From the NCBI GenBank assembly GCA_964473525.1, contig CAYYPK010000031.1, positions 7,820 to 71,819 of the forward strand: DNA of 64,000 nt, read 5' to 3'. This document shows positions 24,101 through 59,444 of this stretch, piece after piece. This DNA comes from an uncultured bacterium. GTDB taxonomy: Bacteria > Poribacteria > WGA-4E > GCA-2687025. The notes beneath the pieces are model-generated. The model saw only the letters and a list, made by a program, of their open reading frames with translations. It was not told where the DNA came from and searched no databases. Each line of letters starts with the position of its first letter. Positions within the stretch are counted from its first letter, which is position 1. The translations under genes and the position numbers were made by a program.

Positions 24101-24614
24101 GGCGATGGAGCCGACGAGCTTCGTCATCTGCGAGCCGAACTCCCTCAACGGGAAGTCCGTCGCCGACTGGCAGTACATATGGCTGCAGTCTCTGGAGGAA
24201 GCGGTCGACGGCTACCAGACGCTGATGATGGTGTATCGCGACCACGATCTGTCCAAGCCCGGTTCGGGGCCGTGGCAGGGAGTTGACGCGTACATGTGCG
24301 ATCTGACCGGGGAAGGCGTCGCCGCGGATGTCGCGCCGGAGTTCGCCCAGGGGCGCGCGTGGCTGAACGGCCGCCGCGTGGACCCGTACGCCACCCCAGC
24401 GCCTTCAGACTACTGCGTAGCCACGTTCGAGCTTGCCGCGCCTGGCGCCCGCGCAATCTCCCGAACCCACACGGAGTGGGAGGGAGCCGTCGCGGAGTTC
24501 ATCGCCTTCGACGCCGTGTTGAGCGACGTTGAGCGTACGGGCGTAGAGGAGTACCTGAGGCGCAAGTGGCTCGACGCGGCCGCCTCAGGCGACGAACCCG
24601 ACCGCACACCCTAG
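21120..24614 (+). CDS. large secreted protein with an N-terminal peptidase M64 (IgA-peptidase-like) HExxH domain and C-terminal Ig-like/jelly-roll repeats
   Basis: Signal peptide present. The segment …NIVVVNRW…FANQREFYNVYALWW…MVNSRGGGGGAGL…GFYHEFAHTALRLGDKY matches the M64 pattern (…YGGGGG…HEFGHSFxxLxDEY). Downstream are repeated ~90-aa modules (…GGAPPYSWSWSNGS…). Confidence 0.6.
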   Translation: MPRVPYMAVALLVCAHSAPASEASFEGVDPLAWVEEPHARTSHAVSMSVEAVPGDATYRFMCREDDTKSRGWAPDPMYEATGLAPETRYTFTAEARVNGDMPRDASPPFSVTTRAADGFDDIVTDGAELIPIMVHGDKDNRINIVVVNRWRKGEEDPYNRPEMRSQFVQDVRDVIKPAFDPDGPQAVAPFANQREFYNVYALWWPGIPPWDPEARNRGEHAAHWETYNEMRARLFLPWSQEGRGWVTHLAMVNSRGGGGGAGLRLEQRVGDAMIEGNEIDGFYHEFAHTALRLGDKYIGWGMWGRADESSNTTLVFQRDKVKWRKWIDPTTPVPTPYRRAHIAKTGLFEGGTHRAAHIFRATPVCTMGVNQFSDGMCVLCVQEAAQRVYEYVDPLEDASPARSELVLAKHGLARFSIRRVRSTPDTQHVVWTVNGRAVAENVDAIEIGLGSIGSYEVACSLEDRSEHIREDPPFARYPRADKRWSVTNPNPTSAADALQVRLAPAHPSVLGADDGSIAATVTGGAPPYSWSWSNGSKDATARGLGEGDHSVLVVDSEFRAGAAETTLARPAALVVTPRSEFSGGVWNVALGIAGADPADVACEWSTGVAGLALRAVADGAYAYSVTHATGVAIEGEVQLTAPERTLTADCEVSPATGANDGQARVSIDGGRAPYAVRWEDRADEYLTARRFLPRGDYTVTVRDANSTELARTVTVESVEPFELARPAFTRATDGSLAIVDGDYEYLWYSDDNPSYVLPPPRGVYEGTFTMSDGRVVEADGAVIPNTNGKWANPPGTPGDGNGEHNRDHNDYGSWVRLDAYVDGRAALPMTVKLQCDDDGSPGRSIDISGETSREATTAEVTGQGSWHGTASDGHLVVEGTGVDAGTFDLLYTARHENPSDPLHVGREFLPPTSGGYYVAARRLTDGAVSRNRVGVHVQLDEDPASSDADPIAPDAVTGARLLLWLDASDMDGDGVEDAPVWSRGSLLGWRGRPGAMEPTSFVICEPNSLNGKSVADWQYIWLQSLEEAVDGYQTLMMVYRDHDLSKPGSGPWQGVDAYMCDLTGEGVAADVAPEFAQGRAWLNGRRVDPYATPAPSDYCVATFELAAPGARAISRTHTEWEGAVAEFIAFDAVLSDVERTGVEEYLRRKWLDAAASGDEPDRTP

Positions 24615-27030: not shown

Positions 27031-28929
27031 CTAGAGGTCGAGGGTGATGTACATGGACCGGTCCAGGACCATCGTCATCGTGCCCCAAAACATAGTGACA
27101 ACGCACTCCCCCAGCGCCAGGCCGAGGAAGAACGGAAGGTACCGGCGGTACGCGCGGAAGCCACCGAAGGTGAGTGTCGCCCACTTCGCCACCGACGCCG
27201 TGAAGATCGAGAACCAGAACACGTTCATGGTGTACGTCGTCGAGACGGCGTAGCCGGCGATGTGGAGCGGGAACCAGACGAACTTGGCTCGGAGTACCGT
27301 AACCAGGAACGCCATCCCCGCGCCCACTGTCGCCGCCGACGTGGCCGCGCCATCGGGCGGCAGAGGGTTGGTCAGCCAGCGCTCGAGCCGTGTGAACGCC
27401 TCCCAGCCTACAAACCCCGTAAACATCCCGTTCTGATACGCGGTGTGGAGGTACGCCCATACGGCGATCGGTACGCCTACGCCCACCGCCATGGCCAGCG
27501 CCCGACCGAACTTGCGGTTGTCGATGCGCGTGCGCTCGGCGATCTTCAACGCCTCCAGCTGGTGCGGCATCGTCAGCCAGTCGTACGACCTGTTGAAGAA
27601 CATGAGGTACGTCATCGCCGTCAGGTTCGACTTGCCGAGGCGTTGGGAGCCGAAGGCGGCGTAAAGCATCGTGCCCGGGCCGCCGTAGTGGAGGTCGTGA
27701 ACCGGCGAGCCGAGCTCGGCGCGCATGCGGGTGATCCCTGTCACCAGGGCGTAGAAGAGCGCGAAGAACGCGGAGATCACCCAGAACGACATGCCCGCGC
27801 GGTAGCAGAAGATGCCGATGTACGCCTGGCACAGGACAATGAGGACGATGCACGCTCGATACCCAAGCGGCTCCCGGGCGTCATCCAGCGTCGATCGCGC
27901 TCCTACGACCTTCCTCGCGACCTGCCGGAAGTACCCCCTGCCCGTCCACAACGCCATGAGGGTGATGCCCATGAATGCGCCCGCCGACTGTTGGGTGGCG
28001 TAAGGGAATTCCGACGGCAGCCCAAGCGCGCGACCCAGGACGGCCTGGGCCTTCCACAGCAGGTAGAAGAACCAGCAGGAAAACGCTAGGTCCAGAGGGA
28101 TGGCGAAGGCGAGACCCAGAGCGAACGGGTAGATGCCGATGGGGAACCAATCGACCGCGTTCCAGGGGCGGGTCACGAAGTAGCGCGCGATGTTGTACTG
28201 TCGGATGCCCCATATGCGCGGGACGGCGGGGAAGTGGTAGTTCAGCCCGTTGATGACGTCTATGGACGCCGCGAGGGCGAAGCCTGCCCACATGTACCGG
28301 TTCTGTAGGAACCGCTCCGAGGAGTGTGTGAGTTCCAGGGGGAGCTGGATGAGCGGGTAGCTTAGCTTTTCATGCTCGGTCCACTGTCTACGCGCGAGGA
28401 AGACTATCAGGAGCGTGGTCAGCAGCAGGGCGATGAGAAACAGTGACCAGAGGGCGAGTGGTACCGCCCATGCCTCCAGATGCGACTGGACGTACAGCGA
28501 GGAGTCGCCCTCGTAGAGGCCCGCGACCGCCGCTTTGTCCGTCACCGCCAGCCAGTCGGGGGTGGCGTCGCCGAACAAGGCGGGCCAGTCGTTCTCCGGG
28601 CTCGCCAACCACACCACGTAAGAAAGCATCGGCGGCAGCATCTGGACGCACATGTGCCCGGCGATGGAGGCCCCCATACTCACCATCGCGTATATGGTCA
28701 GGAGCTCCGCGCGCGTCAGCGCGAATGTCGGCGCGAGCCGCTTGAGGGGCAGGTTGACGACCGTGACCGCGAAGAGCGCGAAGACGGCGTTGTACAGCAG
28801 GGAGATCATCGCAGCGTGCGCGATGTCCCACTTCAGCCCGTACATGACCCAGAATACCGTGGCGACCATCAGGACGAGGCCGGCCACGAGCGCGCGCGGC
28901 GTGAGGGCCGGGCGCGCGTTGCTCTTCAT
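27031..28929 (-). CDS. polytopic membrane protein, paralog P2 of the same ~650-aa family
   Basis: 632-aa product, paralogous to P1 along its whole length. Confidence 0.6.
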   Translation of the reverse strand: MKSNARPALTPRALVAGLVLMVATVFWVMYGLKWDIAHAAMISLLYNAVFALFAVTVVNLPLKRLAPTFALTRAELLTIYAMVSMGASIAGHMCVQMLPPMLSYVVWLASPENDWPALFGDATPDWLAVTDKAAVAGLYEGDSSLYVQSHLEAWAVPLALWSLFLIALLLTTLLIVFLARRQWTEHEKLSYPLIQLPLELTHSSERFLQNRYMWAGFALAASIDVINGLNYHFPAVPRIWGIRQYNIARYFVTRPWNAVDWFPIGIYPFALGLAFAIPLDLAFSCWFFYLLWKAQAVLGRALGLPSEFPYATQQSAGAFMGITLMALWTGRGYFRQVARKVVGARSTLDDAREPLGYRACIVLIVLCQAYIGIFCYRAGMSFWVISAFFALFYALVTGITRMRAELGSPVHDLHYGGPGTMLYAAFGSQRLGKSNLTAMTYLMFFNRSYDWLTMPHQLEALKIAERTRIDNRKFGRALAMAVGVGVPIAVWAYLHTAYQNGMFTGFVGWEAFTRLERWLTNPLPPDGAATSAATVGAGMAFLVTVLRAKFVWFPLHIAGYAVSTTYTMNVFWFSIFTASVAKWATLTFGGFRAYRRYLPFFLGLALGECVVTMFWGTMTMVLDRSMYITLDL

Positions 28930-38133: not shown

Positions 38134-40200
38134 ATGAAGAGCAACGGCGATGCAACGCGGCTGGAGATGGCCCACGTCCTCTTCATGGACGTCGTCGGCT
38201 ACACCCGTCTGTCGCTGGAGCGGCAAGGCGCCTGCATCCAGCAACTCCAAGCCCTCGTGCGCGGCACGCCGACCTTCCAGCAGGCCGAAGCGGACGGGTT
38301 CCTCCTCAGTCACCCGTCCGGCGACGGGATGGCGCTGGCGTTCTTCGACGACCCCACCGCGCCGGTGCGGTGTGCGTTGGAGATCGCGGACAGGATGCGT
38401 GGCGGGCAGAACATCGAGTTGCGGATGGGCGTTCATTCCGGCCCAGTAACGCGCGGCGAGGACATCAACGGCATGCCCAACGTGCGCGGGCAGGCCATCA
38501 ACATGGCGAACCGCGTGATGGACTGCGGCGACGCCGGCCATATCCTCGTGTCGCGCAGCGCCGGTGACATCCTCAGCGAACTCACCAGGTGGGCAGAGGC
38601 GCTCGTCGATCTTGGCGAGGCAGAGATAAAGCACGGCGAGAGCATCGGCCTGTACAGCCTCGTGGATGGGGGCCTCGGCAATCCCGCTCGTCCGTCTCGG
38701 CTCCCCTCCGCGGCACTGGAGCCCGTGGAACCCACGCCGCCCAGTGGCGCGCACGTGGCGCTCCTGTACCGCCGCAACGCGCAGCCCGACGGGGCAGTGC
38801 TCGACGCGCTTGATGAGCACCTGCGGGAGGCGGGCCACACGGTCTTCATAGACCGGCACATGACGGTCGGGATCGAGTGGGCGCGTGAGATCGAAGGTCA
38901 GATACGCGCTGCGGACATCGTCGTCGCGCTACTGTCGGCCAGCTCGGTGCGCAGCGAGATGCTGGACTACGAGGTGCGCGTCGCGCATGAGGCGGCGCAG
39001 GCGCAGGACGGCCGCCCGCGGATGTTACCCATACGCGTGGACTACGACGGAGCCCTCCCTCCACCCATGGCGGCGATCCTGGACCAGCTCCAGCAGTTCA
39101 TCTGGACGTCAGCCGACGACAACGACCAGATGGTGACGGAGATCGCGCAGGCCATCGACGGCCCGGCGCCCGTGGTCGATGCGGGCGAGGTATCCACGCC
39201 GGTCGGCGGCGCCGTTCCCATCGACTCGAAGCTCTACGTCGTCAGGCCGACCGACGACCAGTTCCACCGCGCCGTCTCACGGAAGGACAGCATCGTGCTC
39301 GTGAAGGGCGCGCGGCAGATGGGCAAGACGTCTCTGCTCGCCCGAGGCCTGCAGCAGGCGCGCGACATGGGCGTGCAGGCGCTGTTCACTGATTTGCAGG
39401 CGTTGAGCCCCGAGCAGGTGTCGTCGCCGGAGGAGTTCTTCCTGGCGATGGCGTACTCCCTCGCGGATCAGATGGACCTCGACGTGTTCCCAGAGGAGCG
39501 TTGGACGGATCGCCTCGGGCCGGGCGTGAATTTCGAGCGCTACCTGCGACGGGTCGTGCTTGCGGACGCCGATCACGTCCTATGGGCGCTGGACGAGGTG
39601 GACCGCATGTTCATCACCGACTACGCAAGCGAGGTGTTCGGGCTGTTCCGGTCGTGGCACAACAAGCGCGCGCTCGACCCCGATGGACCGTGGAGTCGTC
39701 TCACGTTGGCTATCGCGTACGCCACGGAGGCGCACCTGTTCATCACGGACGTGAACCAGTCGCCGTTCAACGTAGGCACGCGCCTCGAGCTAGCCGACTT
39801 CGACGTGGCGCAGATAGCCGAACTCAATCGCCGCCACGGCGCGCCGCTGAGCGCGACGGACGTCGACGCGTTCGCGCGTCTGGTCGGTGGGCACCCGTAC
39901 CTCGTGCAGCGCGGGTTCCAGGCGTTCGTAGAGGGTGGCGTGACCTACGCGACGCTCGAAGCGACGGCTGCCGACGACGACGGCCCCTACGGCGACCATC
40001 TGCGACGCATCCTTTTCCTGCTTGCGCAGAACGATCAGCGCCGCGCCGCGGTCGCGGGCCTCACGCAAGGCTCCATCGATGTCGACCCCGAGACGTTCTA
40101 TCACCTGCGCACGGCGGGACTGCTGACCGGAGCATCGATGCGGCAGGCGGAGTTCAGGAACGGGCTGTACGCCGACTACCTCGGCAGGCATCTGGCGTAG
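38134..40200 (+). CDS. multidomain signalling/conflict protein: class III adenylyl/guanylyl cyclase domain + TIR domain + AAA-like (STAND-type) ATPase
   Basis: Cyclase (aa ~5-185): …HVLFMDVVGYTRL…GDGMALAFFDD…RMGVHSGPV…NVRGQAINMANRV…HILVS. TIR-like (aa ~205-330): …VALLYRRNAQPDGAVLDALDEHLREAGHTVFIDRHMTVGIEW…IVVALLSASSVRSEMLDYEV. ATPase (aa ~375-640): …KLYVVRPTDDQF…IVLVKGARQMGKTSLLARGL…LWALDEVD… It matches the AAA-like PF14516 family as I remember it. Confidence 0.72.
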   Translation: MKSNGDATRLEMAHVLFMDVVGYTRLSLERQGACIQQLQALVRGTPTFQQAEADGFLLSHPSGDGMALAFFDDPTAPVRCALEIADRMRGGQNIELRMGVHSGPVTRGEDINGMPNVRGQAINMANRVMDCGDAGHILVSRSAGDILSELTRWAEALVDLGEAEIKHGESIGLYSLVDGGLGNPARPSRLPSAALEPVEPTPPSGAHVALLYRRNAQPDGAVLDALDEHLREAGHTVFIDRHMTVGIEWAREIEGQIRAADIVVALLSASSVRSEMLDYEVRVAHEAAQAQDGRPRMLPIRVDYDGALPPPMAAILDQLQQFIWTSADDNDQMVTEIAQAIDGPAPVVDAGEVSTPVGGAVPIDSKLYVVRPTDDQFHRAVSRKDSIVLVKGARQMGKTSLLARGLQQARDMGVQALFTDLQALSPEQVSSPEEFFLAMAYSLADQMDLDVFPEERWTDRLGPGVNFERYLRRVVLADADHVLWALDEVDRMFITDYASEVFGLFRSWHNKRALDPDGPWSRLTLAIAYATEAHLFITDVNQSPFNVGTRLELADFDVAQIAELNRRHGAPLSATDVDAFARLVGGHPYLVQRGFQAFVEGGVTYATLEATAADDDGPYGDHLRRILFLLAQNDQRRAAVAGLTQGSIDVDPETFYHLRTAGLLTGASMRQAEFRNGLYADYLGRHLA

Positions 40201-47951: not shown

Positions 47952-50900
47952 ATGCGGAAGATAGACACTCCTCGGACCCGGCGATCCCTGTCCTTGCGCC
48001 GCGCGCCGATCGTGGCGTGGTGCGTCCTCCTGCTCGTAGCAACTCTCCATCACGCGCACGCGCAACGCCTGGACCTCACCCTGTCCGAAGACGCCGAAGC
48101 GATACGCCGCGCTGTCGGTATGGACAACATCAAGCGCGACATCGCCAGGCTCACTGCGCTCGAAAGCCGAGTAAGTGGCTTCCCGGGCGCCGATAGCGCG
48201 TCCAAGTACGTCTTTGATCGGTTCCAGGAGATCGGCCTCGACGACGTCGAGACGCGCACCTTCACCATGACCGTGCCGATGGAGCACGGGCTCGGGTCCA
48301 TGGTCGTCCGAGATGCGGACGGCGCCGAGATACGCCAGATCGACGTTCGGGCCGTGTGGCCCAATCTCGTACGCACCTCCTTCCTGCCGAACGGGCTGAA
48401 GCACACTGTCGAGAGTGGGCACACGCTCGAGTGGATAGGCGCCGCCTACCAGGTGGATCCAGCCGACATCGTAGCGGACATGCGCAACCAGGCTCTCCGT
48501 AACCAGCGCACCGACGGTCTGGACAACGACAACGACGGCCTGGTGGACGCCGCGGACCCCGACGGTGAAGTGACGCCCGTCGAAGGCACGTCCATCTTCG
48601 TTCCCACGGGCGGCCTGCAAGGTCGGCTCATCTACGGTAGCAGGTCCGCGCTACGCAACTACGACGGCAAGGAAGTTGGCGGGTTCTGGCACTCCGTGAG
48701 CCCAGACGACACGCTCGACGGCGTCGCTCGCAGATACCGTGTCACCCCCGGTAGCATCCTTGACGACGTCCTGAACCTGCACCTGAGCCGCAGCCAGGAC
48801 GGGATCGACAACGACGCCGACGGCGAGATCGACGAGGACGGCGAGATCGACCCGTTCGCGGTGATCGCCGCGTGGGCGTCCGACGGGGTCGACAACGACG
48901 GCGACGGGATGATCGACGAGGCCGCCGACAAGGACCTGGCGAAGACATCGGAGGCGTCCGTCTTCATCCCGCGCGGCTCGATCGTGCTGGCGGACTTCAA
49001 CTCCAGCACCAACTGGATCAACGCCGCGATGCTCGGCGCGCAGGCGGTCCTCTTCATTGAGCCAGAGGACACGATCCGTGGCGAGGCCGAGAACAAATAC
49101 CTTACCGTACCGGCGAACCTGCCCCGATTCTGGATCGGTAAGGCCGACGCCGACGAACTCCTGGAGATCCTGGGCGAGGATGGCGGGGCGTCCGTCTATC
49201 TGTCCGCCCAGCTCACCGCCGACGTGCGCTGGGAGCGGCGTCCGGCCCAGAACGTGCAGGGCATCCTGCCCGGCGCCGACCCGGTGCTTCGTGACGAGCT
49301 GATCGTCGTCCAGAGCTACTACGACTCCATGTCCGTTGTGCCGTCCCTGGCGCCTGGGGCGCAGACGACATCCGGCATCGCGTCGATGTTCGAGTTGGCG
49401 CGCCTCCTGAAGCAGCCGGAATTCCGGCCGGCGCGTTCGGTGCTGTTCCTGGCGACGGGAGGTCATTTCCAGGGCCTCAGCGGCATGCGCGCCTTCATGG
49501 AAGGCCTGAGCCAGGACAACGTTGAGACGATGCGCGAGATGCGCCGCGACCTCAACCAGGACGTCATTGAGTTCCAGGAACTCGGCCGCAAGATGGCCCT
49601 CTCGATCGACCGCGGCTACCTTGTCGAGTTTCCGCCCGCGTTCTTCCACCGTGTCGAGGACATCGCGACGGACCTCGATTCGGTCGTCAGCAGCCTGAAC
49701 GACCTCGCCGCCGCACAGCGACAGGTAGACCGGCTAGCTGAGGCGCAGCGCGCGGACAAGGAAGAGCAGCGCAAGCGTAAGACGGCGGACCTCTCGAAGA
49801 ACCGCGACGCACAGAACTTCACCGAGGAGGAACGCGCGCTCCTCAACGTTCACCTCGCTCGCGCCGAATTCCTTGGCCTGCAGACTGCCCAATTCCTCAA
49901 GGACGTAACACGGCGCATCGGGGACCTGAAGGTCATCGGCCTTCTCAAGTCGCGCGAGACCGAGCGGCAGATTCTGAACGACGTCGCGATCCCTATCGCC
50001 CAGTTGGACGTGTGGGCGATGGCTCAGGTCCGCGCCATCGCGGAAAGCGGCCAGGTTGGCGACGGCTATTCGCGGGACCGCGCCGATAGCTTGCTGCCGT
50101 ACGAGGACCGCGCGGCGCCTCCCGCGGCTGCTCTCAACACCATGCAGCCGGTGGTGATCCCCGGCTTCGGCGAACTCGATCCCAGGGACGCGTTCGATCA
50201 TCTGGCCAGCCCTGGCGTGCTGGACGAGTGGGAGATCGTGAAGGGCCGAGTCTCCACCCTCTACATTCCCGACAAGGTTCTCGGACGCCATCTGAACGCT
50301 GTTGAGCTAGGGCGCCTACGACGCGCCGCGAAGACGCTGAACGAACGGGCGTCCGGGTCGGACTACGCTAAGACGCGCAACGATCTCCTCGCGAAGGCTC
50401 TGGCGGCAGCGCAAGGGTACGCAGGGGCGGCGGGCGACATCGCGACGATCCAGGGGGCGCTGCAAGCGGGGTCGTTCCGCGCGATCCGCCCCGCCCTCGC
50501 GCGATACCTGACCGACGACGAGATGCGCGGGGCCGAGGCGAGCTTCGCCGAGCTCCAGGACGGCGCCGAATACGCTGCCGAGGAGTTAGCGCACTTCCTG
50601 AACATCGCGGAGCGGCGGCTCGAGCAGGAGGGGCCGCGACTCGAGAGCCTCCTCAGCGCGGCGCAGTCCGGCGCCCTCAACCGCGCCTTCCGCGCGGAGG
50701 AGCAGCTGGCGCTTGCCAATCATCTCACCCAGGCTGACCAGGATGGGCTAGCGGGCGCGCACGAGCAGCTCGTCGCGGAGTACGACCACGAGACGTATCT
50801 CGGCGTGGCGGAGGCCCGCGCGCGCAACGACGTGCTGGAACTCGCGCAGCTACAGCGTCTCGTCCCGACGATGGAGCGCGCCTTCACCGAGGGCGAAAAG

Positions 50901-53900
50901 CGACTCCTTCGCACGAACCTGATGACCATGCGGAACTCACGCGTCCGCAACGTCCACAAGCGCATTGAGCGCCTGTCCCGCATCGACCCGGTGGTGTATC
51001 AGGAGCGCGTCGCTGGCGTCATTCAGTCCATCCAGCTGCAGCAGGAACTCGGCCGCTACTACCAGTCCCTTGTCGTGTCGTTGGACCTCTCGACGCAGAG
51101 CGACGGCTTCGGCGTCTTCTACAAGGGCTCGTTCTACGACGACAACCGCGAATTCGAGCTACGTCGCGAATACGCGCCCATCGGCAACAAGCTGATGGAG
51201 TATGCGACGAACGCCAACCTGAAGCGCAACCTGGAAGCCCTACGTCGCTTCCCAGACGACCACGTCCGGCAGGCGATCTTGTCCAGCCAGTGGGGCGTCG
51301 CCGACCGCGTGAACACCGTCGAAGCGCTCGAAGGCAAGACGCTCGAGACGCTCGTCTTCGACTACTACGACACGCTCGTCACGCTGGGTGGCGTCAGCCG
51401 CCTCATGAAGCTGCAGTTCGAGGACATGCGGCAAAAGGGCGAGCCGTCCAAGACGATGCTCAAGGACATCGACTACATCCGCAAGGAGGTCAGTCGGTTC
51501 GTCCGCAACGACATTCGCGAGGCGCGTCGGCGCCGCAAGTCCACGAAGCGCCTGTTCGCGCGCGTCGAGAAGATGCTCGCGCTCAAGAGCCGACCCATCG
51601 AAGGGCTGTCGGACGACGAGATCAACGACCTGCGCAGCCTCATGGCGATGGCGGGCATCGAGTCCGAGACGAACTTCGTCAACGCCATCAGCGCCAGCGG
51701 CGGTAAGACCTGGCAGACGTATATCCCAGGCAAGATGGCGTTCGACAGCGAGGTCGCCACGCTCTCCGGCAAGACGGGCATGACCTTCGCGACCATCGAC
51801 GACGGACGGGTGTACACGGACACGCCACTCGACACCTACGACCGGCTGAACTTCGACAACCTGGAAGCGCAGGTTCAGACGCTGGCGTCTGTTCTGGTGC
51901 AGATGCTCCGCGACCCGAAGATGCCGACATCCGCGCGGGTCGGGAACTTCTATACGGCGCTGTCCGGCCGCGTTGTCGAATACGACGCCCGCGAGAGCGC
52001 CGTCCCGCAGACTCCGGTGCAGAACGCCATCGTCGCCGTGCGACGCAAGACGAAGACCATGATGGGCGTGCGCGGGGATCTGTACGTGCTCGGCGACCAG
52101 AAGGGCCGATACACGCTGGCTGGCCTGGCGATGGAAGGCCGCGCGACGACGCGTCCGAAGGGCACGCAGGAGGTAGAGGCGTTCGTCCTCGACCCAGACT
52201 CGGGCGACATCGTCTATGCCCCCGACCTCGGCGAGTTCGGCGCGAAGTTCTATCCGAACCTCGTTCCCATGAACCGCCGCCGCGTCGGGGCCAACATCGT
52301 CGCGTTTCCGTGCGTCAGCACGACGATTTACGACCTCGTCGACCAACGGTACATGCGTACGCTCACGTCCTTACAGGTGTACGATTCCACCCGCGACGCG
52401 CCGCCGCAGCGGTACGGCATCTCGCGCCCGTGGATACAGCCGCTGGTGTCCGCCGCGGAGCCCATCGCGCTCGTCTATTCCGAGCCGGACTCCCGCATCA
52501 AAATCAGCATGGCGTCAGGCCTGTTGGGCAAGCTCCTGCTGCTCATCAAGGCCACCGGCACGAACGTCGACAACCCCACGCTCTACACGGGTGAAGGGTT
52601 CGTCGTCCGCGAGAACGGGTCGATCCGCGTGACGCCGTACGTGGTCGTGAAGGACATGTGGAATCTCGATGAGGCGCGCATCGGCCTCTACACGCGCTAC
52701 GGCATCAGCAACAAGCGTCTGGAGGAGTTGCACGGCGAAGCGCAACGGCTGCTAGAGAAGGCTGAGCGTGACTTGGCCGCGAACGAATATACCGCGGCCC
52801 TGAAGAAAGCGCGCGCCGCTTGGGGCAACGAGTCCATCGCCTACCCTGACGTCAAGGCGACCGGCAACGATGTCGTCCGGGGCGTCATGTTCTACCTGTT
52901 CCTGCTGCTCCCGTTTGCGATGTTCGGCGAGCGCCTTCTGTTCGCGGCGACGAACATCAACAAGCGCATCGGTTACACGTTCGGCATCTTCCTGCTCGTG
53001 TTCTTCTTCCTCAGCCAGGTGCATCCGGCCTTCGAGATTGCCGAGACGCCGTTCATCATCCTTATCGCGTTCATCGTGCTTGCGCTGACGGTGGTCGTCA
53101 TCACCATCATCATCCGCAAGTTCAACGAGCAGCTCGAGAAGATGCGGCGTGAGAAGTCGAAGATCTACAAAGCGGACGTCGGGCGGCTGTCGGCCAGCGC
53201 CGCCGCGTTCTCGCTGGGCATCTCCAACATGCGGAAGCGCAAGGGCCGCACGCTGCTGACCTGCGCGACGTTGGTGGTGCTGACGTTCACGGTGATTTCA
53301 TTCACGTCCGTGCGCACGGAGATTCGCGCGCATTCGACGCGCATCCCAGGGGTCACGCCGAACTATCAGGGCGTGCTGATTCGCGACCAATACTGGCGGC
53401 CGCTCGAAGAGCCGGTCGTCGACGGCTCGCGCACGAACTTCCTCAGCGCGACCATCGCGGCGCGTATCGAGGGCGCGATGCAGAACATCGACGTGACCAG
53501 CTACGTCGCCCCGCGCGCTTGGTACGAAGCGGCGAGCGTCGGCAACCAGTCGGCGGTTGTCATCGATAGCCTCGTCGAGGATGACACGAGCTACACCGTG
53601 AACATGCTCGTGGGCATGTCGCCCGACGAGAAGCACGTCACGCGCATCCACTCGAAGCTCGCCTACGGTCGGTGGTTCGAGGACGACGAGCTAGACGCCT
53701 ATGTGTGCGTGCTGCCCAAGGGCGTGTCGGATTCCCTCGGCGTCACTGAGGAGCAGGTCGTCAACGGCGACGCCAAGGTGCGCATCTTGGGCGCCGAGTT
53801 CCTGGTCGTGGGCGTTCTCGGGATCGACTTCAAGGAGCTGACGGACCTCGACGGCGAGGAACTGACCCCCGTTGACTACACGCTCTTGCAGCAGCAGCAG

Positions 53901-55070
53901 CAGCGCGGTTCGCAGGACTCGACCCTCGAGGGTGAGCTGCAGAAGTACCAGCATCTGCCGCCCGACGCCATCGCGGTCCTCCCGTACCAGATCGTCGTGG
54001 ACTCCGGCGGCAACGTGAAGTCCGTCGCCGTGAACATGGAGGATGTGCAGGGCGAGCTGCCAGCGGGCGTGACCGTCGGCGACAAGATCGACGCCATCAT
54101 GTCGCCAGTGATGAAGCGCTCCGGCTTGGACTACTTCGTCGGGAAGGGGCGCAACGTCTTCCTATACAGCTCCATCGGCGGCACGTCCACGGAGCAGATG
54201 AGCAACCTCGCGGTGCCGATCATCATCGCCGCGCTGATCGTCCTCAACACGATGCTCGGCGCGGTCTACGAGCGTGTGCGCGAAATCGGAATCTACAGCG
54301 CCGTCGGCTTGGCGCCGGTGCACATCGCCTTCCTCTTCATGGCTGAGGCGTGTGTGTATGCCGTCCTCGGCGCTGTATTGGGTTACCTGCTGGGTCAGAT
54401 GACCGCCTGGACGCTCGTGCAGACAGGCTGGCTGGCGGGACTCACTCTGAACTACTCCGCGCGATCCACGGTCTACGCGACGATGATCGTCATGTTCGTG
54501 GTGTTGGCGTCGACTATGTATCCGGCGATCAAGGCCGGGCGCATGGCCGTGCCGGACATTGAGCGCAAGTGGCGCCTCCCCGAGCCGGACGGAGACGAAT
54601 GGCATTTCGACCTGCCGTTCACGGTTCTCGGTGAGGAGGCCCTTGGTCTCAACATCTTCATGCGGGACTACTTCGAGGCTCACGCGGACGAGTCGGCGAG
54701 TGACTTCTACGCGGACGATGTCAGCTTCCGACGGGAGACGCCGGAGGGCGCGGAGGACGAGGAGTACGCCTGCGAGATGATGGTGTGGTTGGCGCCGTAT
54801 GACTTAGGCGTAAGCCAGCGCGTCAGCCTCCAGACAACGGCCGTCGGCGGCGAGGAAGAGGAGCTCTTCCGCATCCACTTGGTCGTCTACCGCGAGAGCG
54901 GCGAGATCGCTTCGTGGAAGCGCGTCAACCGACGCTACCTGAACCTGATTCGCAAGCAGTTGCTTATCTGGCGCACGTTCAACGTCGAGTTGCGTGGCGA
55001 ATTCCACGCGCGTGGACGCGACGAGACCGAACGCATGGCGGGTGCCACCCCGGAATTCGCGTCCGACTGA
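47952..55070 (+). CDS. giant fusion protein: signal peptide + degenerate M28-peptidase-like (transferrin-receptor-like) ectodomain + Asp-rich Ca-binding-type repeats + long coiled-coil region + 3 TM + FtsX/MacB-type ABC permease
   Basis: M28-like block …LIVVQSYYDSMSVVPSLAPGAQTTSGIASMFELARLL…RSVLFLATGGHFQGLSGMRAF, with the canonical HxDS / GAxDDxSG / EE zinc-ligand positions substituted. DxDxDG-like repeats (DGLDNDNDGLVDAAD, DGIDNDADGEIDEDGEID, DGVDNDGDGMIDEAAD). FtsX-like first TM …ISNMRKRKGRTLLTCATLVVLTFTVISF…, large periplasmic domain, and C-terminal 3-TM FtsX core …IYSAVGLAPVHIAFLFMAEACVYAVLGAVLGYLLG…. Confidence 0.7.
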   Translation: MRKIDTPRTRRSLSLRRAPIVAWCVLLLVATLHHAHAQRLDLTLSEDAEAIRRAVGMDNIKRDIARLTALESRVSGFPGADSASKYVFDRFQEIGLDDVETRTFTMTVPMEHGLGSMVVRDADGAEIRQIDVRAVWPNLVRTSFLPNGLKHTVESGHTLEWIGAAYQVDPADIVADMRNQALRNQRTDGLDNDNDGLVDAADPDGEVTPVEGTSIFVPTGGLQGRLIYGSRSALRNYDGKEVGGFWHSVSPDDTLDGVARRYRVTPGSILDDVLNLHLSRSQDGIDNDADGEIDEDGEIDPFAVIAAWASDGVDNDGDGMIDEAADKDLAKTSEASVFIPRGSIVLADFNSSTNWINAAMLGAQAVLFIEPEDTIRGEAENKYLTVPANLPRFWIGKADADELLEILGEDGGASVYLSAQLTADVRWERRPAQNVQGILPGADPVLRDELIVVQSYYDSMSVVPSLAPGAQTTSGIASMFELARLLKQPEFRPARSVLFLATGGHFQGLSGMRAFMEGLSQDNVETMREMRRDLNQDVIEFQELGRKMALSIDRGYLVEFPPAFFHRVEDIATDLDSVVSSLNDLAAAQRQVDRLAEAQRADKEEQRKRKTADLSKNRDAQNFTEEERALLNVHLARAEFLGLQTAQFLKDVTRRIGDLKVIGLLKSRETERQILNDVAIPIAQLDVWAMAQVRAIAESGQVGDGYSRDRADSLLPYEDRAAPPAAALNTMQPVVIPGFGELDPRDAFDHLASPGVLDEWEIVKGRVSTLYIPDKVLGRHLNAVELGRLRRAAKTLNERASGSDYAKTRNDLLAKALAAAQGYAGAAGDIATIQGALQAGSFRAIRPALARYLTDDEMRGAEASFAELQDGAEYAAEELAHFLNIAERRLEQEGPRLESLLSAAQSGALNRAFRAEEQLALANHLTQADQDGLAGAHEQLVAEYDHETYLGVAEARARNDVLELAQLQRLVPTMERAFTEGEKRLLRTNLMTMRNSRVRNVHKRIERLSRIDPVVYQERVAGVIQSIQLQQELGRYYQSLVVSLDLSTQSDGFGVFYKGSFYDDNREFELRREYAPIGNKLMEYATNANLKRNLEALRRFPDDHVRQAILSSQWGVADRVNTVEALEGKTLETLVFDYYDTLVTLGGVSRLMKLQFEDMRQKGEPSKTMLKDIDYIRKEVSRFVRNDIREARRRRKSTKRLFARVEKMLALKSRPIEGLSDDEINDLRSLMAMAGIESETNFVNAISASGGKTWQTYIPGKMAFDSEVATLSGKTGMTFATIDDGRVYTDTPLDTYDRLNFDNLEAQVQTLASVLVQMLRDPKMPTSARVGNFYTALSGRVVEYDARESAVPQTPVQNAIVAVRRKTKTMMGVRGDLYVLGDQKGRYTLAGLAMEGRATTRPKGTQEVEAFVLDPDSGDIVYAPDLGEFGAKFYPNLVPMNRRRVGANIVAFPCVSTTIYDLVDQRYMRTLTSLQVYDSTRDAPPQRYGISRPWIQPLVSAAEPIALVYSEPDSRIKISMASGLLGKLLLLIKATGTNVDNPTLYTGEGFVVRENGSIRVTPYVVVKDMWNLDEARIGLYTRYGISNKRLEELHGEAQRLLEKAERDLAANEYTAALKKARAAWGNESIAYPDVKATGNDVVRGVMFYLFLLLPFAMFGERLLFAATNINKRIGYTFGIFLLVFFFLSQVHPAFEIAETPFIILIAFIVLALTVVVITIIIRKFNEQLEKMRREKSKIYKADVGRLSASAAAFSLGISNMRKRKGRTLLTCATLVVLTFTVISFTSVRTEIRAHSTRIPGVTPNYQGVLIRDQYWRPLEEPVVDGSRTNFLSATIAARIEGAMQNIDVTSYVAPRAWYEAASVGNQSAVVIDSLVEDDTSYTVNMLVGMSPDEKHVTRIHSKLAYGRWFEDDELDAYVCVLPKGVSDSLGVTEEQVVNGDAKVRILGAEFLVVGVLGIDFKELTDLDGEELTPVDYTLLQQQQQRGSQDSTLEGELQKYQHLPPDAIAVLPYQIVVDSGGNVKSVAVNMEDVQGELPAGVTVGDKIDAIMSPVMKRSGLDYFVGKGRNVFLYSSIGGTSTEQMSNLAVPIIIAALIVLNTMLGAVYERVREIGIYSAVGLAPVHIAFLFMAEACVYAVLGAVLGYLLGQMTAWTLVQTGWLAGLTLNYSARSTVYATMIVMFVVLASTMYPAIKAGRMAVPDIERKWRLPEPDGDEWHFDLPFTVLGEEALGLNIFMRDYFEAHADESASDFYADDVSFRRETPEGAEDEEYACEMMVWLAPYDLGVSQRVSLQTTAVGGEEEELFRIHLVVYRESGEIASWKRVNRRYLNLIRKQLLIWRTFNVELRGEFHARGRDETERMAGATPEFASD

Positions 55071-55119
55071 GGCGGCGCACACGACAGGCGCATGAACGAC
55101 CGCGCCCAAGGGAGCGAGA

Positions 55120-57162
55120 GTGGCTCGATCAAGACGTAAAGGGGAATCGCTAGCCGAGGAGATGCAATCCTGGGCAAAGCGATACGACACGGACGAAGGT
55201 ATCCGCACCTTCGAGTCCGGGCTAAGCGTCAAAGTCCTCCTGGGCGCGGCTTTCGTCGGCTTCCTGATGATGCCCGGCGCCATCTACCTGACCCTACAGA
55301 CCGGTGGCGCGGCGGGCGGGGCCGCTGCCCCGTGGGTAGCCGTCATTCTCTTCACGGAGATTGCGCGACGCTCCTTCCAGACCGCCAAGCGGCAGGAACT
55401 CTACATCCTGCTGGCCCTCACGGGGGCTGCGGTGAACGCTGGCGGGCAGTATTACGGCTACATCATGGACTCGTACTTTATCAACTCGCAGCAAGCCGAG
55501 TCGTACGAGATCGCCGACAAGATACCTGACTGGGCCATCGCGCCCAAGGACTCCAGGGCGCACGCAGACCGATCTCTATTCCACAAAGACTGGTGGCGCG
55601 GCGCTAGGAGCGAGGCGCGCGTGTTCGGGTTCCCCATCGGCCCCATCACCCTGATGCTCCTGTTGCAGGTGTTGGGACGGCTCCGGCACATATCAGGCAG
55701 TTACTTCCTGTTCAGGGTGTGCGCGGACTTCGAGAAGTTACCGTACCCAATGGCGCCCGTGAGCGCCCAGGGGGCCACTGCGCTCGCGGAGAGCACCCAC
55801 AAGACGGAGACCTGGAGGTGGAGGGTCTTCAGTATTGGCTCCATTATCGGGATGGGTTGGGGAGCCATCTATGTCGGGGTGCCCCAAATCAGCGGCGCCC
55901 TAGGCATGTCGGAGCCGTTGCGCATCATCCCCATTCCGTTCATCGACTTCACGCAGAGCATTGAGGCGTTCGCGCCGACCGGGACGTTCGCTATCACGAC
56001 GGACGCCAGCGCGATACTCACTGGCTTCGTGATGCCCATTCCCGTCGTGGTCGCCCAATTCGTGTCCGCTTCGTTTACGCAGTTCCTCCTCAACCCGTTC
56101 CTGTACCGGCAGGACATCCTGCACACGTGGGAACCGGGGATGGACGTGCGCATCACAGGCCTGCGCAACAGCCTCGACTTCTGGATGAGCTTCGGCTACG
56201 GGAAGACCTTCTCGTTCGCCGTCCTCGGGCTCGGCACCGTCATCATCATGTTCGCCAAGAGAGGCAACAAGAAGGAGGTCGGCGCGGGGAGTTGGGCGGC
56301 GCCTCCTGGACGCGGCGATTTCCCCATCTGGCTGGCCCTCATCATGTGGGGTCTTGGGATGGGCGGCTATGTCTACGTCGTGCACAAGCTGATCCCAGGC
56401 TTCCCGCTCGCGTTCCTGATGGGCTTCGCGTTCCTCTACACCCCGCTGAACTCCTACATCAGCGCCCGAACCTTCGGCATCATGAGCCGCGACCTGTTCG
56501 ACATCCCGTACATCAAGGAAGCCACGTTCATCCTGAGTCGATACGATGAGATCGACATATGGTTCGCGCCGTTCCCAAGCGAGGACTACGGCACGGAGAC
56601 ACAGGGGTGGCGCATCCTCGAGCTGACCGGCACGACCTTCACAAGTAAGATCGCGGCTGACCTGCTTGCCTGGCCGGTACTGCTGATCGCCGGTATCGTG
56701 GCGTGGCATTTCATCTGGAAGCTGGCGCCGATTCCGTCTGCGCAGTACCAGTTCGCGCAGATGATGTGGCCTCTGTTCGCAACGAACCGAGCGTTGTGGA
56801 TCACGGCTCTGCGGGATGGTCACTCCGAGCAGTTACAGGCCATCCGACCGACGTACATTCTCGCGGGCTTCGTCATATCGTTGGGCATCTACGGACTAAC
56901 CGTCGTGTCCCGCATTCCATACCGTCACATTGCAGGTTACGGGGTCATCGGGGGCCTCGGCGCCGACCCGGGTATGTTCTTCCTCCAGTTCATTGGCGCG
57001 ATCGTTGGCCGCTACGTGATGATCAAGCGCTTCGGGCGTAACCGATGGGCGCGGTACAACCCGGTGCTGCTAGCTGGGTTCTTCTGCGGCATGGCGCTGG
57101 TGGGTATGGCGGGCGTCGCGATCGACCTGATACAGAAGTCGGTCATCGTGAAGCCGTTCTGA
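55120..57162 (+). CDS. polytopic membrane protein, divergent paralog P3 of the P1/P2 family
   Basis: 680 aa with a GTG start and a GGGAGCGAG Shine-Dalgarno. It shares …FEKLPYPMAP… and the overall hydrophobic pattern with P1/P2, and lies 49 bp downstream of the giant ORF. Confidence 0.55.
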   Translation: MARSRRKGESLAEEMQSWAKRYDTDEGIRTFESGLSVKVLLGAAFVGFLMMPGAIYLTLQTGGAAGGAAAPWVAVILFTEIARRSFQTAKRQELYILLALTGAAVNAGGQYYGYIMDSYFINSQQAESYEIADKIPDWAIAPKDSRAHADRSLFHKDWWRGARSEARVFGFPIGPITLMLLLQVLGRLRHISGSYFLFRVCADFEKLPYPMAPVSAQGATALAESTHKTETWRWRVFSIGSIIGMGWGAIYVGVPQISGALGMSEPLRIIPIPFIDFTQSIEAFAPTGTFAITTDASAILTGFVMPIPVVVAQFVSASFTQFLLNPFLYRQDILHTWEPGMDVRITGLRNSLDFWMSFGYGKTFSFAVLGLGTVIIMFAKRGNKKEVGAGSWAAPPGRGDFPIWLALIMWGLGMGGYVYVVHKLIPGFPLAFLMGFAFLYTPLNSYISARTFGIMSRDLFDIPYIKEATFILSRYDEIDIWFAPFPSEDYGTETQGWRILELTGTTFTSKIAADLLAWPVLLIAGIVAWHFIWKLAPIPSAQYQFAQMMWPLFATNRALWITALRDGHSEQLQAIRPTYILAGFVISLGIYGLTVVSRIPYRHIAGYGVIGGLGADPGMFFLQFIGAIVGRYVMIKRFGRNRWARYNPVLLAGFFCGMALVGMAGVAIDLIQKSVIVKPF

Positions 57163-57214
57163 CGCGGCGTCGTCGACGCGATCGCACGGTATTCCACGCC
57201 ACGGACATGGAACC

Positions 57215-58156
57215 ATGGCCGACTCATGGGCGCGGTTTGGGTGGCAGGGCCTCTCCGCTGAGGCGCCCGTCGACTGGGAACTCGTGGGCATCCCCAAAAC
57301 CCACGACGCCGCGGAAGGCTATCTGCGCCTCGATGACGCCACGCAGCCGCGCTTCGAGCTGAAGTGGAACTCCAACGCGCAGCGCAAGTTCGACATCGAG
57401 AAGACGCTGGACGACTACCTGTCCGGCATTCGGAAGACCTACGAGAAGCAGATCGGCCCCATTGAGGTGCGCAAGGACCAAGTGCTCATCCCGGACGCTG
57501 GCGCGGATGCCGCGTTCCACGAGCATCGTGAGGTGCGCTTCTTCTCGTGGCGTGGCGAGTTGCGCGCGTACGGCGCCATATGGCGTTGCGCCGAGTGCAA
57601 GCGCGTGGTCATGGCGCAGGTCATCGGCCCTTCGGGCGGGCAAGGGACGAAGACGCAAGCAGTGCGCATCCTACGTTCTATCCAGGACCACCCGTCCGGT
57701 CCTACGAACTTGTGGACCGCCTACGGCCTGGAAATGGACGTGCCGCGGCGCTTCCGCTTGGACAAGCTACAGCTCCTGAACGGCTACATCCTCTTCTCCT
57801 TCACCGACGGTTCGTCTCGCGTGGCGGTCGAGCGCTACGGGCTCGCCGACCAGCACATGAAGGATGGCGACATCGACGCGTGGTTCCGACGGACGTATGC
57901 TAAGCAGATGCGCGGGACGACGCTGGCCTTGGACGACGACGACCTGCACGACCATTCGCTGCGTATCTGGGACGCGTCGCTCCCCAAGGCCTGGGAGTCG
58001 TACGCGCGCCCCGTGCGCACTGCGGGACATGTGTGGCAGGACGCCACGGCGAACCGGCTCTATGTCGTGCGGGCCACCGGCAAGCGTGATCTGCGAGCCG
58101 CGATGCGGCGTATCGCGGCGAGCATCCCGATGCGGCCGGTCGAGGTCATGGAATGA
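57215..58156 (+). CDS. hypothetical protein (313 aa), no family recognised
   Basis: ORF with coding-like composition. Its stop overlaps the start of the next gene in an ATGA. Confidence 0.4.
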   Translation: MADSWARFGWQGLSAEAPVDWELVGIPKTHDAAEGYLRLDDATQPRFELKWNSNAQRKFDIEKTLDDYLSGIRKTYEKQIGPIEVRKDQVLIPDAGADAAFHEHREVRFFSWRGELRAYGAIWRCAECKRVVMAQVIGPSGGQGTKTQAVRILRSIQDHPSGPTNLWTAYGLEMDVPRRFRLDKLQLLNGYILFSFTDGSSRVAVERYGLADQHMKDGDIDAWFRRTYAKQMRGTTLALDDDDLHDHSLRIWDASLPKAWESYARPVRTAGHVWQDATANRLYVVRATGKRDLRAAMRRIAASIPMRPVEVME

Positions 58157-58647
58157 TGGCGGCGGCGCTTAACAACGTGCTGCACACTTTGCGCCTGCGG
58201 CGCAGGCCGCCGCAATCGCAGCGGTCGCGCGCCGACGTCATGGCGTCCGTGCCGGTGCGGAATTCTTTGGTTGAGTGGCGCAAGGAGGAGACCGGCGACG
58301 TCTCGCTCGTAATCCCGGCGGACCACAAGCGTACGTTGCGCATCCTGGTCCGTGTGATGAACCTGCCCGCCAAGCGGGTCGTGGCGTTGGACGCGGTGGG
58401 CTCCTTCGTCTGGGAGCAGTGCGACGGTGAGAAGACGTTCGGCGAGGTGTCGGAGGCGCTGGCGAAGCAGTTCGGCATGACGCGCCGCGAGTCCGAAGCG
58501 TCCCTGGCGGAGTTCTTCCGCGTGCTGGGTAAGCGTGGGATGCTGGGCTTCGTCGTGGCTGACGGGGTGAAAGAGCAAATAGAGGCGGCGAAAAACAGCG
58601 GCCGAGGGCGCGGCAAGCGGCAACACGGGAAGAAGGGGCGTCAATGA
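58153..58647 (+). CDS. PqqD-family protein (RiPP recognition element-like)
   Basis: …ALDAVGSFVWEQCDGEKTFGEVSEALAKQFGMTRRESEASLAEFFRVLGKRGML matches the PqqD consensus (…LNetaaxiWellDGkrtveeixeelaeeydvdpeeaexDvlefleeLxexgLl). It is ATGA-coupled to both neighbouring genes. Confidence 0.7.
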   Translation: MMAAALNNVLHTLRLRRRPPQSQRSRADVMASVPVRNSLVEWRKEETGDVSLVIPADHKRTLRILVRVMNLPAKRVVALDAVGSFVWEQCDGEKTFGEVSEALAKQFGMTRRESEASLAEFFRVLGKRGMLGFVVADGVKEQIEAAKNSGRGRGKRQHGKKGRQ

Positions 58648-59444
58648 CCGAAGGAACCATGGGAGTCCAGGCCACGGACGCCGGGGCGATTGCCGCGACG
58701 TTGGCCCCCGTCGAGAACGCTGTTCGTGTGCGCAATGTCGTCAAGCGCTACGAGATGGGCGACACGGTCGTCGATGCGCTCAGGGGCGTCAACCTCGAAA
58801 TCCGGCGTGGTGAATACATCTCCATCGTCGGGCCGTCGGGCTCCGGCAAGTCCACGCTGTTCAACATGGTCGGCGGACTCGACAAGCCGACAGAGGGGCG
58901 CGTCTACATCGACGAGGTGGACATCGCCCAGTTGGACGCGCGCGAGTTGGCGTGGCTCCGATGCCGCAAGATCGGCTACATCTTCCAGAGCTTCAACCTC
59001 ATTCCCGTGATGACGGCTCTCGAGAACATCACGCTGCCCATGATCTTCGCAGGCGACACGGCGGACGACGCCATTGAGAAAGGCGTCGGGCTCCTAACGA
59101 GGGTGGGTCTGGGCGATCGCGTGCAGCACAAGCCGGTCGAGCTCTCCGGCGGGCAGCAACAGCGCGTTGCGATCGCGCGCGCCTTCGCAAACGATCCGTC
59201 CATCATCCTCGCGGATGAGCCGACAGGGAACCTGGACACGCAGACAGGACTCGATGTTATCGACCTGTTGCGTGAGCTGAACCGGGAAGGCAACGTCACG
59301 ATCATCACGGCGACGCACGATCTTAAGATGCTGGATGTATCCGACCGCATCGTGCACATCGAAGACGGCCGAGTGGCGAAAATCGAGCTCCGCGAGGACG
59401 CCGACCTGGATGTCGGCACGCTCGACGGACAGGAAGTAGGATAA
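58644..59444 (+). CDS. ABC transporter ATP-binding protein (MacB/LolD-type)
   Basis: Walker A GPSGSGKST, the Q-loop, signature LSGGQQQRVAIARA, Walker B IILADEPTGNLD and an H-loop. Typical partner of FtsX-type permeases. Confidence 0.92.
   Translation: MTEGTMGVQATDAGAIAATLAPVENAVRVRNVVKRYEMGDTVVDALRGVNLEIRRGEYISIVGPSGSGKSTLFNMVGGLDKPTEGRVYIDEVDIAQLDARELAWLRCRKIGYIFQSFNLIPVMTALENITLPMIFAGDTADDAIEKGVGLLTRVGLGDRVQHKPVELSGGQQQRVAIARAFANDPSIILADEPTGNLDTQTGLDVIDLLRELNREGNVTIITATHDLKMLDVSDRIVHIEDGRVAKIELREDADLDVGTLDGQEVG

Follow-up and report, generated by a model that had tools for sequence, protein, structure and literature searches.

A PqqD-type protein and a tandem PsbP-like protein as putative cytoplasmic subunits of a type VII ABC envelope system in Poribacteria and other phyla

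One use of the ABC (ATP-binding cassette) systems of type VII is lipoprotein extraction. Proteins of this MacB/FtsX type have no transmembrane (TM) path for a substrate, and ATP hydrolysis in the cytoplasm is converted into movement of periplasmic domains (PMC5985334). By this means coiled-coil effectors such as EnvC are activated (PMC7668044) or a hydrolase partner is driven, as for YbbAP, which is paired with a hydrolase (PMC12646458), and some systems need extra membrane cofactors, e.g. SweC and SweD (PMC6705773). PqqD domains and other RREs, the recognition elements of RiPPs (peptides that are made by the ribosome and modified after translation), serve as a class-independent flag for RiPP gene clusters. 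Here we describe an operon in which a PqqD-type protein is encoded between a 313-amino acid (aa) protein and a MacB-type ABC ATPase. The operon lies in a 64,000-nucleotide (nt) stretch of DNA from an uncultured bacterium of the Poribacteria (contig CAYYPK010000031.1, positions 7,820 to 71,819 of the forward strand), which we call the window and to which all coordinates refer unless a locus is named. We propose, with a probability of about 0.5, that the PqqD protein and the 313-aa protein (a tandem PsbP-like protein) serve in the cytoplasm as accessory subunits of an ABC envelope machine of type VII (MacB/FtsX-type) that has not been described before.

An earlier note on this DNA had described three open reading frames (ORFs) joined by two ATGA stop/start overlaps. 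The ORFs and both overlaps were confirmed from the sequence, and they are the tail of a five-gene operon (47952-59444) that the note had missed:

47952..55070, plus strand: giant fusion protein, 2372 aa (Pfam FtsX 1.3e-12, Peptidase_M28 3.7e-11, MacB_PCD 1.1e-07; hydropathy scan)
55120..57162, plus strand: 680-aa polytopic membrane protein, putatively a divergent oligopeptide transporter (OPT)-like protein (at least nine hydrophobic segments; relation seen via homologues)
57215..58156, plus strand: gene of the 313-aa protein, soluble, with two predicted tandem PsbP/Mog1/DUF1795-like alpha-beta domains and a conserved C125-x-x-C128
58153..58156, plus strand: ATGA stop/start overlap from the 313-aa gene to the PqqD gene, read in the sequence
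58153..58647, plus strand: PqqD gene, 164-aa PqqD/RRE-fold protein
58644..58647, plus strand: ATGA stop/start overlap from the PqqD gene to the ATPase gene, read in the sequence
58644..59444, plus strand: ATPase gene, 266-aa type VII (LolD/MacB/FtsE-like) ABC ATPase

Stronger evidence than the overlaps is the conservation of this gene order. A pattern scan with the 313-aa family, using one genome per GTDB species, gave 44 species loci, of which 41 are labelled Poribacteria (including one 'uncultured Poribacteria'), one is a metagenome-assembled genome (MAG) labelled Planctomycetota and two are further MAGs; three Armatimonadota loci came in addition. As judged by tblastn, the order giant, 680-aa, 313-aa, PqqD and ATPase on one strand was found in every locus with enough sequence, with outer flanking genes that vary between loci. 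The module was present in every Poribacteria genome examined and is apparently universal in this phylum. We also looked at six loci of 680-aa homologues outside the Poribacteria (Desantisbacteria, Armatimonadota, Firestonebacteria, Brocadiia and two metagenome assemblies). Four of them, including loci of Desantisbacteria, Armatimonadota and Firestonebacteria, have the module together with a 196-215-aa FtsX-only protein encoded between PqqD and ATPase, and usually a DUF6785/DUF6784 protein next to the giant; the 262-aa Armatimonadota protein encoded before PqqD is a 313-aa homologue (hhalign E 1.7e-38). The block of 313-aa, PqqD, small FtsX and ATPase genes precedes, rather than follows, the DUF6785, giant and OPT-like genes in loci L049 and L053, and its four genes are still contiguous, from which it follows that the 313-aa and PqqD proteins belong with the ATPase part of the system. 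The tie between the RRE protein and an FtsX/ABC system that the earlier note had drawn is thus borne out beyond translational coupling, as the link is kept across at least four phyla.

FtsX-only proteins of 196-223 aa, with four TM segments and no periplasmic domain, were seen in L051 (9800-10390), L050 (13402-14049), L053 (1570-2181), L049 (957-1628) and L045-L047. Such a gene is lacking from the Poribacteria modules, including that of the window. Its occurrence outside the Poribacteria suggests a heterodimeric permease there.

Compared with gene order, the overlaps themselves say less, since ATGA overlaps are frequent in compact operons and taken alone are weak proof. The gaps between the giant and 680-aa genes and between the 680-aa and 313-aa genes are 49 and 52 nt. 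Further downstream, the TGA of the 313-aa gene (58154-58156) shares bases with the ATG of PqqD (58153-58155), and a Shine-Dalgarno-like GAGG (58142-58145) is located within the 313-aa gene, 7 nt before the PqqD start; likewise a GAAGGGG (58632-58638) within the PqqD gene precedes the ATPase start by 5 nt. Were a second in-frame ATG of PqqD, at 58156, the true start, the overlap would shrink from 4 nt to 1 nt (TGATG), and the genes abut in both cases. Across loci, our junction analysis placed the PqqD-ATPase junction within a few nt in most Poribacteria, and the spacing from the 313-aa gene to PqqD at -44 to +565 nt; the script takes the start codon closest to the upstream stop, so that these gaps are biased towards zero. 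Because the latter spacing is variable, the ATGA at that junction is a local feature, and the gene order is the conserved property. In L011, a gene for a 165-aa four-helix-bundle protein of the 23S rRNA intervening-sequence type (10942-11439) is inserted between the 313-aa and PqqD genes, so that the overlap of the window is broken up there, and L013, L015, L023, L025 and L031 have gaps of similar size at this position. A precursor gene hidden in a large gap was ruled out for L011, where the gap is the inserted gene.

Assignment of the middle protein to the PqqD family was upheld. It matches PF05402 over residues 69-131 (E 2.8e-11, 44 bits vs. a cut-off of 23.4) and is similar in sequence to two RREs of solved structure, TbiB1 and PqqD. 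The AlphaFold2 (AF2) model has a predicted local distance difference test (pLDDT) score of 84-93 in its core (residues 31-50 and 81-130), and Foldseek placed it on TbiB1 (5v1u, TMt 0.81-0.83, root-mean-square deviation 2.8) and also on PqqD (5sxy), 6jx3 and other RREs. The RRE fold of the protein is genuine, and the protein is a member of PF05402 that is an orphan with respect to RiPP enzymes. Its invariant residues are concentrated on beta3 (R75-D80) and alpha3 (E113-G129), which in known RREs make up the cleft where the leader is bound (PMC12710340). In its PF05402 match and its conserved beta3/alpha3 cleft it is like the discrete RREs, i.e. PqqD of pyrroloquinoline quinone synthesis and lasso peptide B1 proteins such as TbiB1. 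Unlike these, it is longer (126-169 aa across homologues), has an insert between beta2 and beta3 and terminal extensions, and is obligately linked to an ABC ATPase/FtsX module, with no precursor, radical-SAM, B2 protease or cyclase partner. Canonical PqqD lacks three of its features: an N-terminal helix of basic character, about 17 helical residues inserted between beta2 and beta3 and, in Poribacteria, a variable basic C-terminal tail that is not present outside this phylum. All NCBIfam PqqD subfamily models scored below their cut-offs (TIGR03859, 27.5 vs. 46; NF033536, 18.6 vs. 80; TIGR04248, 25 vs. 100; TIGR04302, 17.3 vs. 100).

For the 313-aa protein, which has no match in Pfam or NCBIfam, the AF2 model (pLDDT 87.8, predicted template modelling score 0.85) consists of two similar alpha-beta domains. 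Foldseek against the PDB gave PsbP, CyanoP, Mog1p, Tsi3, DcrB and the Eag-type chaperone SciW as top matches, each spanning about half of the query (PsbP: E 5.6e-5, probability 1.0, TMt 0.5-0.6 per domain), and the N-terminal and C-terminal halves are homologous to each other (hhalign E 6e-7). Sequence and profile searches of the family against the PDB returned nothing useful; the protein belongs to the PsbP-like class by fold and not as a sequence family. The predicted alpha-beta-alpha sandwich is like that of Eag/DUF1795 proteins, PsbP, Mog1p, DcrB and Tsi3, and its two side-by-side copies recall the Eag homodimer. Unlike in the Eag and PsbP proteins, to which there is no detectable sequence relationship, the two domains are in one chain, presumably in the cytoplasm, and in an ABC operon rather than in a type VI secretion or photosystem context. 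Members of this fold class are known to bind proteins or ligands or to act as chaperones, and none is known to be catalytic. The confident model thus points to an internally duplicated fold of binding or chaperone type and not to an enzyme fold, which speaks against the earlier proposal that the protein is an unrecognised modifying or processing enzyme.

This family is larger than it appears at first. A word-indexed search recovered only 24 clusters, the named ones all Candidatus Poribacteria; an exhaustive profile search recovered 1246 clusters (50% identity) at E <= 1e-3 and 625 at 1e-10. Nearly all members are 290-340 aa long, so this is a stand-alone family without a Pfam model, and 48 positions are invariant, including C125; C128 is nearly invariant. 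Since the hydropathy scan found no hydrophobic segment in either the 313-aa or the PqqD protein, both are taken as cytoplasmic. The CxxC of the 313-aa protein (57587-57598) and C90 of PqqD (58420-58422), an invariant cysteine just before the DG motif of this PqqD subfamily, are conserved across phyla, and a metal or disulfide site common to the two is conceivable.

The identification of the third protein as a MacB-type ABC ATPase also stands. It matches PF00005 (5.4e-34), and its best NCBIfam models are LolD (1.7e-70), the MacB nucleotide-binding domain (NBD; 6.1e-66), YbbA, DevA and FtsE. Walker A, signature, Walker B and H-loop are intact in the alignment, and the protein is unusually well conserved, with 66-75% identity between Poribacteria, Armatimonadota, Firestonebacteria and Desantisbacteria. 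Past the normal end of the NBD it carries a conserved acidic C-terminal tail of about 20 aa (RE..L.VG..GEEVG).

The giant is the only FtsX/MacB permease of the operon. A signal peptide or TM segment (13-31) is followed by an ectodomain of about 1600 aa with acidic Ca-type repeats, an M28-like domain (434-541) and long helical regions. The membrane part has three TM segments (1641-1720), a MacB-type TM1 (1769-1787), a MacB periplasmic core (1771-1983) and FtsX TM2-4 (2080-2190), and the C-terminus is a cytoplasmic domain of about 180 aa. FtsX (48.3 bits) and MacB_PCD (32.9 bits) are both matched, with the periplasmic domain located between TM1 and TM2 as in type VII permeases. Judged from sequence, the operon with this permease and its ATPase belongs structurally to the type VII ABC class. 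The M28-like domain (49251-49574) gives a significant Pfam match of 43.6 bits that covers the N-terminal half only. Relative to the Vibrio aminopeptidase, H97 is replaced by Y and E151/E152 by H/F, and one residue is deleted at D117; identical changes are present in the aligned giants of the other phyla examined (Firestonebacteria, Desantisbacteria and other loci). Without the canonical His/Asp/Glu/Asp/His zinc ligands and catalytic Glu, the domain is best regarded as a conserved, putatively non-catalytic pseudo-peptidase module. Its PDB matches include Nicalin, a non-catalytic M28-like protein. The cytoplasmic C-terminal domain of the giant was considered as a relative of the 313-aa protein, and the comparison showed the two to be unrelated. 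Among the operon genes and the neighbours in annotated loci, no HlyD/MacA-type domain was found.

The 680-aa family, with more than 1051 homologues of the window protein, appears to be a divergent branch of the OPT superfamily. PF03169 was matched by 3 of 25 sampled family members (best 1.5e-9), and several homologues carry the NCBI name 'peptide transporter'; the window protein itself has no Pfam match even at E 10, and its assignment is thus indirect. The family profile gave nothing against the PDB. A comparison with DUF6785 was not significant (hhalign probability 1.2%), even though both have an ERLPFP/EKLVFP-like motif. Between the giant and OPT-like genes, an ORF of about 55 aa with two TM segments was seen in L001 (7622-7798) and in 35 other Poribacteria loci (consensus MEKLAY..I..GA..W..SI...G.W..Q.L.A.IL..GI..AH.WEE.F). 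It does not occur in the window, in the close relatives L003-L008 or in the non-Poribacteria loci, and it is reminiscent of small two-TM modulators in other MacB-type systems, e.g. VraH.

By these features, the closest parallel to the operon appears to be FtsEX-EnvC in a fused form, joined by OPT-like membrane partners. With FtsEX-EnvC, FtsEX-PcsB and FtsEX-CwlO it shares an ATPase of LolD/MacB/FtsE type a four-helix FtsX permease whose TM1 and TM2 are separated by a periplasmic domain, and a long helical extracytoplasmic arm that ends in an enzyme-like domain, here, as in the dead LytM of EnvC, without the catalytic residues. Unlike in FtsEX, permease and effector arm form a single chain of 1450-2400 aa, whose enzyme-like domain is M28-like instead of LytM, CHAP or NlpC; as partners it has OPT-like or DUF6785 proteins of a 16-TM class, and the two cytoplasmic proteins, one with an RRE fold and one tandem PsbP-like, have no counterpart. 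The NCBIfam equivalog cut-offs for FtsE and FtsX are not reached either: FtsE (TIGR02673) scores 210 vs. 264.85, and FtsX models score 9-25 bits vs. 225-255, so that FtsEX orthology does not apply. Like YbbAP-TesA, MacAB-TolC and LolCDE, the system would use cytoplasmic ATP hydrolysis for envelope work, with YbbA and LolD among the best ATPase models; unlike them, it has no MacA adaptor or TolC gene and no lipoprotein-carrier partner, its ectodomain is a different one, and it has cytoplasmic accessory proteins. By curated models, it is not FtsEX, LolCDE, MacAB or YbbAP, and neither its cytoplasmic accessory proteins nor its OPT-like partners have a precedent among type VII systems.

In the mechanism that we propose, ATP binding and hydrolysis by an ATPase dimer would be passed on through the FtsX helices to the ectodomain, which would perform mechanical work outside the membrane, analogous to the action of FtsEX on the dead-LytM activator EnvC or of YbbAP on TesA. 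The OPT-like protein would be a membrane partner, and a conduit if anything crosses the bilayer. On the cytoplasmic side, the beta3/alpha3 cleft of PqqD may clamp a conserved peptide segment by strand addition. This segment would most likely come from a partner subunit and not from a free precursor: as conservation of the cleft extends from Poribacteria to Desantisbacteria, a ligand conserved to the same degree is to be expected, which fits a segment of a partner protein better than a fast-evolving precursor. Together with the pseudo-dimeric PsbP-like protein, PqqD would form an adaptor or regulator through which the ATPase/FtsX unit is gated or assembled. The earlier note had suggested that the RRE was recruited to deliver a substrate to the FtsX exporter. 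Its tie to FtsX/ABC is retained, but delivery is doubtful, as type VII proteins have no transmembrane substrate path (PMC5985334); for the same reason, regulation or an adaptor function is the more probable role of a cytoplasmic RRE subunit. Should a peptide cross the membrane, it would more plausibly pass through the OPT-like partner than through the FtsX protein.

A wider interpretation, which we put forward tentatively, is that the RRE fold here has a use outside RiPP synthesis, in a cytoplasmic subunit that would be stoichiometric in a new ABC envelope machine spread over several phyla, where it clamps a partner segment or a transported peptide and couples the cytoplasmic state to extracytoplasmic work. 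In this same tentative interpretation, the machine class would be made up of a giant pseudo-M28/FtsX fusion, OPT-like or DUF6785 membrane partners and the tandem PsbP-like protein.

Several observations weigh against the proposal that the PqqD and PsbP-like proteins are subunits of the machine. In two of the six loci outside the Poribacteria (L048 and L052), the giant and OPT-like genes have no 313-aa/PqqD/ATPase block nearby; the cytoplasmic block may be separable there, or it may be encoded elsewhere in the genome. Candidates for a ligand of the RRE on the ATPase have also lost ground: the N-terminal extension of the ATPase was rejected as not conserved, and the conserved C-terminal tail is weakened as a candidate by L050, which lacks it and yet has PqqD. 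Finally, the many invariant charged residues of the 313-aa protein together with its CxxC could form a catalytic or metal site that is hidden from fold comparison. In L052, the genes next to the giant/OPT-like pair were compared as possible divergent 313-aa or PqqD homologues, with a negative result.

The main rival explanation, which we consider less probable, is peptide handling. Here the OPT-like protein would import or export an oligopeptide, the RRE would bind the free peptide as a receiver, as a sensor that feeds back on the ATPase or as a chaperone, and the PsbP-like tandem would be an Eag-type holder; in the import version, peptides would be captured or released by the ectodomain. The relation of the 680-aa protein to the OPT superfamily is in favour of this, although for the window protein that assignment is indirect. 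SciW, an Eag chaperone that grips hydrophobic segments, is among the fold matches of the 313-aa protein, many type VII ABC systems handle peptides, and in NCBIfam the ATPase comes near the darobactin and lactococcin-972 export ATPases. RREs do bind peptides, and the cleft elements are conserved, but such conservation across phyla speaks for a ligand that is itself conserved, as is more usual for a partner protein than for a free peptide. Local production of a peptide is unlikely, since the M28-like domain is without its canonical catalytic residues in the aligned giants of all phyla examined, and the module is without a conserved peptide gene.

Much less probable is a cryptic RiPP pathway, in which the RRE would be conventional, with precursor and tailoring enzyme encoded elsewhere or with the 313-aa protein as a new tailoring enzyme, and the ABC proteins would serve export or immunity. 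The PqqD Pfam match and RRE fold agree with such a role, and MacB-type exporters do occur in RiPP clusters such as that of darobactin (the NCBIfam DarD model matches the ATPase at 4.9e-61). Of the usual parts of a RiPP cluster, the RRE domain is present, and an adjacent tailoring enzyme and a precursor gene are both absent. Among the large ORFs scanned across the window, we found no radical-SAM, YcaO, lasso or lanthipeptide enzyme, in agreement with the lack of a radical-SAM, YcaO, lasso cyclase or B2 protease partner reported before, and none of eight Pfam-annotated homologous contexts from four or more phyla contained a RiPP enzyme. A leader-core precursor, for which a search had been suggested, gave no conserved candidate in the window or around the module in any locus, in a search that covers the loci and not remote sites; clustering of small ORFs returned just the 55-aa two-TM protein and out-of-frame shadows of coding regions. 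The distribution of RiPP clusters is typically patchy, but this module is a collinear chromosomal operon by housekeeping genes in 44 of 44 recovered species loci. The 48 invariant positions of the 313-aa protein, CxxC included, would suit a tailoring enzyme, but its fold is PsbP-like, a class without known catalytic members, and the NCBIfam RiPP-class PqqD models are all far under their cut-offs. Taken together, the five-gene operon is not a RiPP pathway. That the PqqD-like protein is instead a winged-helix regulator of the operon, holding DNA with its basic N- and C-terminal tails, is very improbable, as the tails are a feature of the Poribacteria versions and the C-terminal one is missing elsewhere, the match is specific to PqqD with RREs and not regulators as top fold matches, despite the RRE being a winged-helix fold of which transcription factors are frequent look-alikes (PMC12710340), and the position of the gene mid-operon, joined to the ATPase or small FtsX gene, suggests a stoichiometric subunit.

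In the library searched, no paper was found on DUF6785/DUF6784, on PqqD with FtsX or on FtsX with M28 and MacB, and the RRE survey papers made no mention of an RRE in this ABC context. Should the subunit proposal be true, the operon would be a clear case of an RRE fold reused beyond leader-peptide recognition, and the large and broad ABC-linked PqqD subfamily would systematically yield false positives when genomes are mined. The system would then also be a fifth architecture of type VII ABC mechanotransducers besides FtsEX, LolCDE, MacAB and YbbAP, and the first in which cytoplasmic accessory proteins are dedicated to the system. The module is found in Poribacteria, which are sponge symbionts, and in several candidate phyla without model organisms, and it contains three families without assigned function (313-aa, 680-aa OPT-like and DUF6785/6784).

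In the surroundings of the operon, the genes before 47952 are divergent (PspA/IM30 and a 180-aa ORF, minus strand), and a xylose-isomerase-like TIM-barrel gene that is retained in close relatives only begins 5 nt past the ATPase gene. A PADLOC scan of the 680-aa, 313-aa, PqqD and ATPase proteins, i.e. all but the giant, gave just a generic ABC-ATPase similarity for the ATPase and no defence link. The remainder of the window is ordinary chromosome with rpoB, rpoC, aconitase, PNPase, a sigma-54 activator and sugar-type oxidoreductases. A 688-aa protein (38134-40200, plus strand) has a cyclase-like segment together with a TIR domain and an AAA_35 NTPase, an architecture of defence or signalling type that is unrelated to the operon. 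Two paralogous DUF6785+DUF6784 membrane proteins are encoded on the minus strand at 24626-26602 and 27031-28929 (Pfam E 1e-144 and 1e-149), 20 kb from the operon and amid GFO/IDH/MocA, xylose-isomerase-like and Zn-dependent alcohol dehydrogenase (Zn-ADH) genes; in other phyla, the DUF6785 family directly adjoins the giant M28-FtsX gene. Adjoining this pair in the window is a gene (21120-24614, plus strand) for a 1164-aa protein with an SprB repeat and a weak M64-peptidase-like segment.

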